Of a stretch of 15,321 nucleotides of DNA, positions 12,001 to 15,000 are shown piece by piece. The position numbers are program-made. Origin of the DNA: a virus (lineage: Duplodnaviria > Heunggongvirae > Uroviricota > Caudoviricetes); IMG/VR virus record IMGVR_UViG_2703718673_000003; one strand, written 5' to 3'. Within the stretch, counting starts at the first letter, position 1. Each line of letters opens with the position of its first letter.

Positions 12001-15000
12001 GGAGCCTCATGCGGTGAAGTCCGTCGCCATTTCACATCCTTCACATCCCTGCCGGGGGAACTCTCCACCAGCGTCATACCACTGGACATAAATGTGGTGG
12101 TACGTTTTGAGGCAAGAGAGAAGGCATCCCCCTCGCCATCAATATCTTCCGGAAAACGGTCATAATCCGTCAGCGCCACGCATTTATAATCTGATGAGGA
12201 CATGATATTGACTGACGGCCAGCCGATTTTCAGGTAGTTGCCAGCAAGGAATGTTCTGTCATAAACGTTGTTGTCATTTTTGTTCGGACTCAGGCGACTG
12301 ACCACTTCCGGGCTGACGCGAAACGTTCTGGCGAGTCGTTTTTTGGAGTGTTCGCGGGCTTTTTCCTCCGTCATCTGAATGATCAGCATATCCGCAGGAT
12401 CGCAAATCACGTTGTAAATCACCCAGCCGTCAATCAGGCCGATAGTCTTGCCGGTTCGTGCCGGGCCAACAAATATCACTGCGTCGTATTCACGCGAGGC
12501 CAGGCAGTTCATCGGCTCAATAACATACGGTGCCACCAGCGGATCCCACGGGACTGAGTTCCCGGCCCCCATGGGCACCCGCATATACTGAGCAACGGCA
12601 TCAGCAACCCGCATTCGTCTCGGTGCGCGAAGGATATAACCTGAATCGGTTCGTGCTGCCTTTGCGGTTTCCTGATTCAGCATTACTCCTCCTGCTGTAA
12701 TTCCTCCTCATCATCCGCACCTGCTTCGGTCACCCGCAGGGCTATCTGATCGCGCAGATCATCAATAATGGACTGAACACGGCTCACAGCGGCAGGCTGC
12801 AGACCACAGTCACGTTCCAGAATATCCGGTAATGTCTCCAGCACCTGCACGACCGCTTTTGCCCAGATGGCAAACTCCCGTCTGACATCACTGGCCGGAA
12901 TGAGTTGTGCCGTTTCCTGTTCGAACTTAAGACGCTCACGTTCAGACTGATACCAGGCTTTGCGTTCATGTGGATCCATTTCGCCCTCAGCAACCGGCGG
13001 TGGTAACCCCATAAATTCAGTCAGAATATCGGTCAACCGGTATAGCTTGAGTTTGTCATGTCCACCAGCGGGACGAATGTTTTTCAGTCTTGCCACGACA
13101 GTCTGGCGGTGCAGACCAGATAAAGCCGCCAGTTGATTAATATTCAGCACCAGGTTTTTCAACTCATGATCCATATTTCCTCCGGAGAGCTTTAAACATG
13201 CATCGTGCGAACAACTTTAAGAAAACGCGTTCGATGTCGAACAAAAAACACTCAATTCGACATACAAAAAACAAATAACCATTAATAATCAATAAGATGC
13301 AAAGATGATGGTGGCCGATAAAAATGCAAAAACTAGCCTTTTTCCGCGACGCTCCCGCCCCGTGGCAGGCCACCCCACCGGGAGGAGCCGTCAGCCTGAA
13401 AGCCATGACGAACGTCTGATACAGCCCTTGCATGAATGGCATCGGGATAATCCAGAAAGGAATAGCATCGACCCACAAGAATCTGTGTGAGTGTCCTGTT
13501 TCTTCCACCCCCGCACAGGACTGGCGAGCATGAGGGACAAACCCGCGAATCATTAGCGCGGTAAAAACCCGGTGTGCATCGTTTTTGATTATTCCCGCAC
13601 ACTCGCGCAGAAGGAGTTCCCCGTCGGGCTACGGTCATGGTTAATGCGGGAATACAGCGACGATACAGCGCATGATGTGTCAGGCTTGAATACCTTTATC
13701 CGTTAAAAGGGATATCAGTTAAGTTATCCCGTGTAGGGTATAAGCCATTATCAAAGCCACTCTGTAGGGAGTGGCTTTTGTAATGGCAATAAAAAAGCCC
13801 CGCGAATGCGAGGCTAAATCCAGGTATTTTTAATGACTGGCTCTTATCTCAACGCAGCCCCTTACCGCGCGCCAGATGCTCAATATCAAGCATCAGCAAT
13901 GAGATGTTTAACCATGATTCACTCCAGAAGTGAGCACCACCCTGTCTACAGAGCCAGATGTGAAGGATGATGAGTAAAATTATCGCTATCATCGAAGGCA
14001 TTGCGTCCTGATGTATTCCTGAAGCGTTCTCAGTGCTGTTTGGTCGCGGATAATTCCGTCCCGGATACCGAGAACGTTTCGTCCAGCAACTGGAGAGAGT
14101 TCGACGGTGGCATCATTGCCCATGCCGGAGGCGCTGGAGGTTTCGTCTGAGGATGGCACAGGGCATTTTCCTTTGACGAACACCCGACCACCATTATCAA
14201 GCTTGCGCCGAAGAGCATCATTTTTAGCTTTCGCATCAGCTAACTCCTTCGTGTATTTAGCATCGAGTGCATCAGCAGCACGCTGGCGCTGCTGCATGTC
14301 AGTAATGGTGGCGGTCGCCTGCTTCAGCTCACTGACTTTTTTATCACGCTGTTCTTTATAGGCGATGGCGTTATCACGGTAATGATTAACCGCCCATGAC
14401 TGGCAGACGATGATGCAGATAACCAGAGCGGAGATAATCGCGGTTACTCTGCTCATTGTTGCCCCCACAAACAGACTTCACGCTCAATCTCGCGGCGAGT
14501 CATCAGCCCTTTCCATTGCTTACCGCCAGCGTATGTCCAGCGCCGTAGCTGATCACATGCGCCTTTGATATCACCCTGGTTTATTTTGCGAAGAAGCGTC
14601 GATGTTCTGAAATTACCAGCGCCCACGTTGTAAACGAACGAGTAAAGAGCGCCGCGCGTTGTTTCCGGTATATCGACTTTGATGTACGGGTTAATTTGTC
14701 TGGCGACCGTGGCAAGGTCTTTATTCAGGAGGGCTTTGCATTCTGCTTCGGTATACGTTTTACCGGGAATGATGTCTTTTCCGGTGTGTCCGTGACATAC
14801 AGTCCATACGCCAACGATATCTTCGTATGGTATGTAGCTGACACCTTCCAGGCCATCGTCACCACTCGGACCAGTGATGAGCACAGACGCTATGGCAGCA
14901 GCCCCACCACCAATAGCAGCAGCAACAGCCTTGCGTAATGATGGCGACATTATTCACCTCTCGCAGCCTTACGCTTATCTTCTTTAATCTTGAAATAAAG

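Follow-up and report, generated by a model that had tools for sequence, protein, structure and literature searches.

A likely lambda-type cos site beside DUF1441-type TerS and gpA-type TerL genes in an Escherichia coli O157:H7 prophage

Identification of a probable cos site

The window, which is the whole analysed stretch of 15,321 nt from a Caudoviricetes virus (IMG/VR record IMGVR_UViG_2703718673_000003), very probably carries the cos of a lambda-type packaging module, as judged from sequence comparison. The module is of the kind that combines a DUF1441-type TerS with a gpA-type TerL, like those of mEp460, mEp213/LLS, Gifsy-2, cdtI and Tritos. The elements have the same order as in lambda: cosQ, cosN, IHF site, repeats, TerS and gpA-family TerL (Table 1). 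The core of the initial annotation, a lambda-type cos with cosN at 13349-13360 and cosB reaching up to the small-terminase gene, is supported by this comparative evidence. Its interval, 13175-13370, does not extend to the cosQ-like heptamer, which lies at 13383-13389. The cos site is of an ordinary, already known kind, so that the observation is correct and not new. The sequences show the elements with their order, spacing and conservation, the protein families and the start of other phage records at the same 12-mer; where the strands are nicked, which repeats act as R sites and that IHF binds are inferred.

Table 1. Features of the cos region and the adjacent terminase genes (bp are counted from cosN)
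Feature	Coordinates	Strand	Remarks
cosQ-like heptamer GGCTCCT	13389..13383	minus	-29..-23 from the top-strand nick
cosN, CG/GGGCGGGAGCGT/CG	13362..13347	minus	flanking CG and left half same as lambda cosN
Predicted nicks	13361/13360; 13349/13348	minus; plus	12-nt 5' overhangs; core 13349-13360
Invariant block, bp 13-34, CGCGGAAAAAGGCTAGTTTTTG	13327..13348	minus	same in 11 sequences of three cosB subtypes
Candidate R3, direct, bp 46-57, CCACCATCATCT region	13304..13315	minus	one-mismatch TCNNCATC copies at bp 47 and 50
IHF consensus (putative I1 equivalent), bp 62-74	13287..13299	plus	AATCAATAAGATG against WATCAANNNNTTR, one mismatch
Candidate R2, inverted, bp 98-105	13256..13263	plus	ATGTCGAA on minus strand, TTCGACAT on plus strand
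Candidate R1, direct, bp 120-128, TTCGACATC	13233..13241	minus	exact TCNNCATC inside; within palindrome GTTCGAcaTCGAAC
Conserved block, bp 141-170, TTAAAGTTGTTCGCACGATGCATGTTTAAA	13191..13220	minus	kept across three cosB subtypes
TerS, 163 aa, DUF1441 type	12683..13174	minus	Pfam DUF1441, E 4.6e-44, residues 10-149
TerL, 700 aa, gpA family, ATPase and endonuclease domains	10581..12683	minus	Pfam GpA_ATPase, 9.1e-72; GpA_nuclease, 1.9e-85

cosN and cosQ

Positions 13345-13365 of the plus strand read cgcgACGCTCCCGCCCcgtgg, exactly as quoted in the initial annotation, and the reverse complement is CCACG/GGGCGGGAGCGT/CGCG. Compared with the lambda 12-mer GGGCGGCGACCT (NC_001416), GGGCGGGAGCGT has the same base at 8 of 12 positions and differs at bp 7, 8, 9 and 11. 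The left half (GGGCGG) and both CG pairs at the nicks are those of lambda cosN, and the ACG and CGCGG flanks show no difference from lambda. The TerS start codon lies at bp 187 from cosN, and its lambda equivalent at bp 191. A lambda-like cosN with a divergent core of 8 identical bases, lambda flanks and the lambda-equivalent distance to the small-terminase gene had all been claimed before, and all were confirmed here. In rotational symmetry, the cosN of the window has 8 of 16 bp and that of lambda 10 of 16.

Natural cosN variants described by the Feiss laboratory keep the left half and the flanking CG and are variable at bp 7-12 (PMC4669245), and the differences in the window fit this rule. 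N15 is changed at bp 9 and 12 and Gifsy-1 at bp 8, 9 and 11, with left half, flanks and cosQ kept (PMC4669245); the window shares this pattern, with its changes inside bp 7-12, although its TerS family and cosB differ from theirs. It is unlikely that the cosN match arose by chance. The pattern CGGGGCGGN6CG matched once in the window against 0.05 expected, and a search with the lambda 20-mer allowing up to four mismatches gave a single match in the window, a result seen in 1 of 100 first-order Markov simulations.

In lambda, the cosQ heptamer GGGTCCT is placed at -30..-24, and the heptamer of the window matches it at 6 of 7 positions, with G changed to C at position 3. The gap between cosQ and cosN is 22 nt in the window and 23 nt in lambda, which brings cosQ 1 bp nearer. 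Most relatives match the lambda heptamer at 7 of 7 positions: among 77 close relatives, 69 have GGGTCCT at this place and seven have GGCTCCT. Both this heptamer (13389..13383) and the IHF consensus (13299..13287) were overlooked in the initial annotation.

Proposed organization of cosB

The GTTCGAC/TCGAA repeats between cosN and the TerS gene, which the initial annotation had pointed out together with A-tracts, are real. They include a perfect 8-nt inverted repeat, ATGTCGAA/TTCGACAT, at 13234-13241 and 13256-13263 and the palindrome GTTCGAcaTCGAAC at about 13229-13242, and A/T tracts are also present. Next to cosN, the CGCGGAAAAAGGCTAGTTTTTG block sits where lambda has its cosN-proximal (I2) region, and it can be aligned to lambda in part.

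Judged by sequence, the layout of direct repeat, IHF site, inverted repeat and direct repeat resembles R3-I1-R2-R1 of lambda, with the R and IHF sites putative. In six divergent cosBs of the clade, repeats of the TCNNCATC type recur at three conserved positions; this motif was derived post hoc, after inspection of the sequences, and in the window it is exact in only one of the three copies. At the R3 position, each of the six cosBs of the window TerS clade has TCATCATC-type elements within bp 42-59; R3 is at bp 50-65 in lambda and at bp 48-60 in N15 (PMC9026076). At the R2 position, the motif is inverted at bp 98-100 in LLS and yong2, and Sp15 has an inverted TCATCATC at bp 98. The R1 position is also occupied in Sp15, LLS, yong2 and the L105 type. 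We had considered TTCGNCAY alone as the R motif and replaced it by TCNNCATC, since TCATCATC-type and TTCGACAT-type elements interchange at the same positions in Sp15, LLS and yong2. The IHF consensus is exact in mEp460 at the same bp, and in the whole window only four matches with at most one mismatch were found. Its orientation is that of the best lambda match, which was taken as I1. The TTAAAGTTGTTCGCACGATGCATGTTTAAA block might act as one more terminase site or as a signal for TerS translation or expression.

The motif proposed for the R sites bears no sequence relation to the lambda R sites. The spacing differs too: the candidate R2 and R1 are about 22 bp apart in the window, compared with roughly 48 bp in lambda by our own reading of its sequence.

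Terminase proteins

TerS belongs to the DUF1441 / PHROG 141 class (Gifsy-2, Fels-1, mEp213, mEp460, cdtI type) and its gene is directly upstream of that for the gpA-type TerL. The match to PHROG 141, "terminase small subunit", had an E value of 2.7e-77. The initial annotation had called this gene Nu1-like. No similarity to lambda Nu1 was detectable: BLASTP gave no alignment with Nu1, and the Pfam search gave DUF1441 and no Phage_Nu1 match. A helix-turn-helix, LNINQLAALSGLHRQTVVARL, is predicted at the N-terminus, where the match to HTH_30 (residues 11-40, E 5.5e-4) was weak and under the family cut-off. Searching PDB sequences with phmmer returned nothing significant, and a single-sequence AlphaFold model of TerS had a mean pLDDT of 51.6, with the N-terminus below 50. 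TerL, in BLASTP, was 25% identical to lambda gpA (E 3e-19) and 88% identical to cdtI TerL. The window differs from lambda in the sequence family of TerS, and its TerL is only 25% identical.

Comparison with related phages

The lambdoid coliphages mEp460, PhiR55_1, mEp213 and LLS, which have a Gifsy-2-like head module, share the cos layout of the window. Their TerS proteins are 100% (PhiR55_1), about 86% (mEp460) and about 62% (mEp213/LLS) identical to that of the window. PhiR55_1 has the cosN and cosB of the window save one base, mEp460 has G at bp 12 of cosN, and mEp213/LLS has GGGCGGCGCGCT and a shorter cosB with the ATG at bp 130. Unlike the window, this group has the GGGTCCT cosQ and intact portals.

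Tritos has the same first 33 nt as the window and cdtI 32 of 33, but from about bp 35 their cosB is unrelated and without TCNNCATC/TTCGACAT elements. Their TerS is only 42% identical and differs in the recognition-helix region (HRDT vs HRQT). In these phages, therefore, a different presumptive specificity module accompanies the same cosN.

The initial annotation had proposed that this phage has its own cohesive-end sequence. This does not hold, because GGGCGGGAGCGT is common to many phages and prophages: it was present in 68 of 77 close relatives and, among the IMG/VR matches listed, it made up 12 of 131 lambda-type cosN matches, the second commonest there. The GenBank records of cdtI (AB285204) and Tritos (OV696610) start exactly at GGGCGGGAGCGT, and in the record of the Hafnia phage yong2 the first base is the homologous bp 13 and the last 12 bases are its own 12-mer. 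LLS, with a TerS 63% identical, carries at the homologous place an annotated 12-nt 5' cohesive end, an annotation that is itself inferred. Cyanophage Cr-LKS3, whose TerS is 37% identical to that of the window, is reported to have 5' cohesive ends starting with a lambda-like GGGC and having lambda-like flanks (PMC9303873). A full-text literature search with GGGCGGGAGCGT matched only unrelated human-gene papers, and the Tritos paper nowhere mentions cos or termini.

Alternative interpretations of the conserved elements

Three records, those of mEp460, mEp460_ev081 and Ayreon, are linearised at a point 25 nt ahead of the TerS ATG: query positions 801/802 correspond to the ends of JQ182728 and LR597641, and Ayreon ends at the same base. 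These records would suit a true cut site other than cosN, such as one about 25 nt upstream of the TerS start codon (13199/13200), with another role for the GGGCGG block. We regard this as highly improbable. There is no cos-like feature, neither symmetry nor conserved flanks, at 13199/13200, and cdtI, Tritos, LLS and yong2 all have records opened at the site homologous to cosN. Since the records of mEp213 and mEp043, which come from the same depositors, open 12 nt ahead of TerS, record starts of the mEp460 type look like a convention of starting just before the first gene. The likeness of cosQ and cosN to lambda is far beyond chance. It is also very unlikely that the GTTCGAC/TCGAA elements form a hairpin (GTTCGAcaTCGAAC followed by T-rich sequence) acting as terminator or attenuator upstream of the TerS gene and are not terminase sites. 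A terminator scan did report 13243..13228 on the minus strand, with a 6-bp stem, three GC pairs and the tail CGTTTTCTTA, but the stem is weak and a terminator here would keep late transcription from reaching the terminase genes. Moreover, the half-site alone is kept in cosBs of the mEp460 and L105 types, which have no palindrome, and TTCGACAT recurs in LLS, yong2 and Sp15 with constant position and orientation, also without the palindrome.

Several phage records carry a "hypothetical protein" CDS over the site, and PHROG 17397 matches residues 65-101 of the minus-strand ORF at 13333..13638. Conservation could thus come from a protein-coding ORF (13333..13638 or 13164..13553 on the minus strand) and not from a DNA site, but this is extremely improbable. 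Two 1-bp indels (13425 and 13471) fall within this stretch between the window and PhiR55_1, which are 98.6% identical, so no reading frame is kept. RefSeq has no gene at this place in O157:H7, the ORFs had no Pfam matches, and the conserved blocks coincide with the non-coding cosQ and cosN of lambda. The Rfam search of 13000-14000 gave no family over the threshold, and a sigma-70-like promoter was looked for in 13100-13900 and not found.

Condition of the O157:H7 copy

The window is 100% identical to a prophage of E. coli O157:H7, with full-window matches in strains such as TR01. From its map position and shared defects, this prophage is probably Sp3 of Sakai. The locus at attB-lambda in O157:H7 PV15-279 was rejected as source of the window, as TerS is truncated and the head genes are missing in that copy.

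We lean toward the view that this cos is genuine by descent and non-functional here, a fossil in a decaying O157:H7 prophage that is never cut in vivo. The view refines the lambda-type cos reading and does not contradict it. The portal gene has a +1 frameshift and cosQ is mutated to GGCTCCT, where 69 of 77 relatives keep GGGTCCT, and for these reasons the copy is probably a relic; cosQ is described as highly conserved and essential for termination (PMC4669245). Sp3 of O157 Sakai was scored as portal-defective and was neither circularised, replicated nor packaged (PMC2669165). On the other side, both terminase ORFs (TerS and TerL) are intact, cosN and cosB are essentially the same as in the isolated phage PhiR55_1, and co-resident terminases with related cosBs (e.g. 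Sp15) might still initiate here. Most likely, then, the cos copy in the window is a relic without activity, or at best one that the terminases of co-resident prophages could take as a substrate; it may never be used.

Proposed packaging mechanism and specificity

In the proposed mechanism, which follows the analogy with lambda, dimeric TerS would bind the three TCNNCATC-type repeats (direct at about bp 46-57 and 120-128, inverted at about bp 98-105), and IHF would bring the first two repeats together by bending the DNA at bp 62-74. This would anchor the gpA-type TerL, which would nick both strands 12 bp apart at CG/GGGCGGGAGCGT/CG and leave 5' overhangs. Packaging would proceed toward the terminase and head genes, and the upstream cosQ heptamer would be required at the next cos cut, for termination of packaging.

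In the lambda/N15 system, right-half cosN differences (bp 9 and 12) did not determine packaging specificity (PMC4669245). Specificity most likely resides in cosB and the small terminase, which is here of the DUF1441 type. The window adds an example to a known rule, by which cosN drifts in its right half and keeps its left half and flanks, cosQ is conserved, and cosB and TerS carry the specificity. A wider proposal is possible but rather doubtful: that the DUF1441 clade has its own cosB code (TCNNCATC direct, IHF, inverted and direct, the last two about 22 bp apart), that the cosQ-cosN cassette (through bp 33) was shuffled among at least two unrelated cosB/TerS modules (window vs cdtI type), and that the cos of the decayed O157:H7 prophage, with cosN and cosB intact and cosQ mutated, might still be cut by Sp15-like terminases. 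If it is true, cutting by co-resident terminases with related cosBs, such as that of Sp15, would begin packaging of adjacent DNA without proper termination.

Implications for annotation

The value of the site is practical and concerns annotation, as none of the phage and RefSeq records examined has a cos annotation there. A known cos would allow correct orientation of these genomes and would make it possible to predict between which of the prophages resident in O157:H7 DNA could be cross-packaged. For Sakai Sp4, such cross-packaging was proposed, probably via the Sp14 terminase, because the putative cos sequences match (PMC2669165). Exactly at the cos site, the sequence is garbled in at least two assemblies, those of Ayreon and mEp460_4F5.

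Cohesive-end site and its match to lambda

Judging from its sequence, the site is an ordinary lambda-type cos, and the initial annotation had identified it correctly. On the minus strand, GGCTCCTCCCGGTGGGGTGGCCTGCCACG is followed by the 12-mer GGGCGGGAGCGT, the predicted cohesive-end core, and then by CGCGGAAAAAGGCTAG; lambda cosN as read from NC_001416 has GGGTCCTTTCCGGTGATCCGACAGGTTACG, GGGCGGCGACCT and CGCGGGTTTTCGCTA at these places. With the base that opens the 12-mer numbered as bp 1, the two cores share 8 of 12 bases and differ at bp 7, 8, 9 and 11, and the lambda flanks ACG and CGCGG are present with no mismatch. 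In natural lambda-like cosNs bp 7-12 are free to vary, and conservation covers the left half, the CG pairs on either side of the core, and cosQ (Feiss laboratory, PMC4669245); N15 varies at bp 9 and 12 and Gifsy-1 at bp 8, 9 and 11 (PMC4669245). The window fits this rule exactly. The pattern CGGGGCGGN6CG occurs once in the window (0.05 expected), and the lambda 20-mer with up to four mismatches also has a single match; a match at this level was seen in 1 of 100 Markov simulations. The lambda-equivalent distance to the small-terminase gene was also borne out, with the ATG at bp 187 in the window versus bp 191 in lambda.

A cosQ-like heptamer, overlooked before, lies upstream of the predicted top-strand nick at a distance of 22 nt. 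Six of its 7 bases agree with lambda cosQ (GGGTCCT), for which the distance in lambda is 23 nt. Among 77 close relatives, 69 have GGGTCCT at this position and seven have the G-to-C variant GGCTCCT. cosQ is reported to be strongly conserved and to be essential for terminating packaging (PMC4669245). The likeness to lambda runs from cosQ to about bp 45, with 53 identities in 97 alignment columns from -35 to +60.

Coordinates of the features of the cos region and neighbouring genes
Feature	Position	Strand	Remark
cosQ-like heptamer	13389..13383	-	GGCTCCT
cosN 12-mer	13360..13349	-	predicted core
Conserved cosB block	bp 13-34		invariant in 11-sequence alignment
Conserved cosB block	bp 38-57		11-sequence alignment
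Conserved cosB block	near bp 70		ATTGAT core; 11-sequence alignment
Conserved cosB block	near bp 100		TGTCGA; 11-sequence alignment
Conserved cosB block	near bp 112-122		T6-GTTC; 11-sequence alignment
Conserved cosB block	bp 141-170 (13191-13220)	-	30 bp, TTAAAGTTGTTCGCACGATGCATGTTTAAA; 11-sequence alignment; just upstream of TerS ribosome-binding site
Candidate R element	bp ~42-59		direct; six cosBs
Candidate R element	bp ~98-106		inverted; six cosBs
Candidate R element	bp ~120-130		direct; six cosBs
ORF over cosQ and cosN	13333-13638	-
ORF over cosQ and cosN	13164-13553	-
TerS (small terminase)	13174..12683	-	163-aa ORF; Pfam DUF1441 4.6e-44; PHROG 141 'terminase small subunit' 2.7e-77
TerL (large terminase)	12683..10581	-	700-aa ORF; Pfam GpA_ATPase 9e-72, GpA_nuclease 2e-85
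Split portal ORFs	10444..9320 and 9225..8863	-	1-bp insertion vs PhiR55_1

Terminase genes

The minus-strand order near cos is TerS, TerL, then portal, protease-capsid and tail genes, with the lysis genes upstream. The 700-aa protein (25% identity to lambda gpA, E 3e-19) is a gpA-family large terminase. TerS, a DUF1441 protein, gave no BLASTP match to lambda Nu1, so the name Nu1-like given initially holds for position and role and not for detectable sequence homology.

Distribution of the cohesive end

The initial annotation proposed that the phage has its own cohesive-end sequence. cosN could be recognised in 77 of 80 viral contigs encoding a close TerS relative; the 12-mer was GGGCGGGAGCGT in 68 of them and GGGCGGGAGCGG in seven. 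The exact site with flanks was found in ten different phages of the phage collection (PhiR40_1, PhiR47_1, PhiR55_1, phi458, 569R4, 606R10, HannyBb, mEp460_ev081, Tritos and cdtI). We also scanned IMG/VR with ACGGGGCGGN6CGCGG, and among the matches listed (131, from 120 stretches) GGGCGGGAGCGT was second commonest with 12, after the lambda 12-mer with 51. It means that this cohesive end is not private to the phage. The 291-bp cos region had a match, at some identity level, in 2158 of 5426 complete E. coli genomes. Three lambda-type cos sites (93, 8228 and 10764), all pointing the same way, were found in one 12-kb viral contig (IMGVR_UViG_2574179916_000005), and the cosB/TerS type that follows differs from one site to the next; the contig may be misassembled or pieced together from prophage remnants.

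The cohesive end is already base 1 of published phage records, and several phages point to this site as the likely place of cutting. GenBank records of cdtI (AB285204/NC_009514) and Tritos (OV696610) start at GGGCGGGAGCGTCGCGGAAAAAGGCTAGTTTTT, identical to the window 12-mer; the first 33 nt are the same in Tritos and differ by one base in cdtI. For Hafnia phage yong2 (TerS 63% identical), the record starts at the homologous CGCGG (bp 13); near its end comes cosQ, followed after 22 nt by the phage's own 12-mer, which closes the record. In phage LLS (TerS also 63% identical) a 12-nt 5' cohesive end, GGGCGGCGCGCT, is annotated at the homologous position, as inferred by its authors without measurement. 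The TerS of cyanophage Cr-LKS3 is 37% identical by tblastn, and this phage is reported to have 5' cohesive ends of 9 nt, of which the first four bases and 2+2 flanking bases are those of lambda (PMC9303873).

Two other records are irregular at cosN. Ayreon (MF807953, 2140-2300) has a chimeric insert of about 160 nt, including a TerS gene fragment, exactly at the expected core, and mEp460_4F5 (LR595868) begins 5 nt upstream of where the nick is predicted, with 3 nt of cosN missing (record positions 1-20). In both cases the irregularity looks like an artefact of assembling reads at physical DNA ends.

Elements of cosB and packaging specificity

We aligned cosB from 11 sequences of three subtypes (window, mEp460 and L105 types). 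The IHF consensus WATCAANNNNTTR matches the window at bp 62-74 with one mismatch, one of only four such matches at this threshold in the whole window, and mEp460 has the exact consensus at the equivalent position. The orientation is that of the best match in lambda (at bp 79-91, with one mismatch), taken here to be I1, the IHF site of lambda cosB. The GTTCGAC/TCGAA repeats noted initially are present as a perfect 8-nt inverted repeat, ATGTCGAA/TTCGACAT (13234-41 and 13256-63), the only one returned by the repeat finder.

Six cosBs were compared (window, mEp460 type, L105 type, LLS, yong2 and Sp15/VT1-Sakai), whose TerS clade shares an HRQT-type helix (CRQT in L105 type). Elements like TCATCATC and TTCGACAT interchange at three fixed positions. 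Exact TCNNCATC occurs at all three in LLS, yong2 and Sp15; the window has it exactly at bp 121 and with one mismatch at bp 47/50 and 97, and none was found in cdtI or lambda cosB. The IHF site falls between elements one and two, and the arrangement probably resembles the lambda R3-I1-R2-R1 layout of small-terminase sites, on a motif that was defined post hoc, after sequence inspection. The candidate R2-R1 distance is shorter than in lambda. This putative R-site code of the DUF1441 terminase clade would be mildly new.

The window has cosQ-cosN and bp 13-33 in common with cdtI and Tritos, but the cosB of these two phages is unrelated from about bp 35 on, and their TerS is only 42% identical. The cdtI TerL is 88% identical. 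The two TerLs align only from residue 21 on, which means that their first 20 residues differ; in lambda gpA the N-terminal segment contacts the small subunit. Terminases of lambda and N15 specificity showed no cosN specificity in one study (PMC4669245).

Other readings of the region

Records derived from mEp460 are linearised at 13199/13200, and a true cut there is unlikely, for nothing cos-like is found at this point and the linearisation looks like a depositor convention. Conservation of the cosQ/cosN stretch might instead reflect protein coding: the ORF at 13333-13638 matches PHROG 17397 ('unknown function'), and hypothetical proteins are annotated here in several phage records. This fails because frame-breaking indels separate the window from its close relative PhiR55_1 (13425 and 13471), which suggests that both ORFs were called spuriously across a DNA site that is conserved. 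The cosB palindrome makes a poor hairpin or terminator, being weak and not conserved, and no Rfam family above threshold (13000-14000) or promoter-like site (13100-13900) was found.

Between the lysis genes and this cos site, a strong terminator-like hairpin (13796-13815, minus strand; 8-bp stem, six GC pairs, T-run) agrees in position with a terminator annotated in Ayreon.

State of the prophage copy

Over 4.9 kb the window is 100% identical to many E. coli O157:H7 chromosomes, such as TR01 at 907-912 kb. In phage PhiR55_1, which is 98.6% identical, the portal is intact at 502 aa; relative to it, the window has an extra A at about 9349 that splits the gene, and RefSeq annotates two portal CDS there in TR01. 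The split portal suggests a defective prophage, and the decayed state of this copy is a mildly new point. By map position (~0.9 Mb) and defect pattern it resembles Sp3 of strain Sakai and is probably the same prophage. Sp3 was scored as defective in portal and integrase and as being without repressor and replication functions (PMC2669165), and showed no circularisation, replication or packaging (PMC2669165).

In O157:H7 PV15-279 (899-901 kb), a prophage between ybhC and bioA has a 291-bp cos region identical to that of the window. Only about the first 112 codons of its TerS gene are left, fused to remnants of tail-fibre sequence; the effector genes nleB2/nleC/nleH1/nleD come next, and the head genes are lost; thus cos has outlived the packaging genes there.
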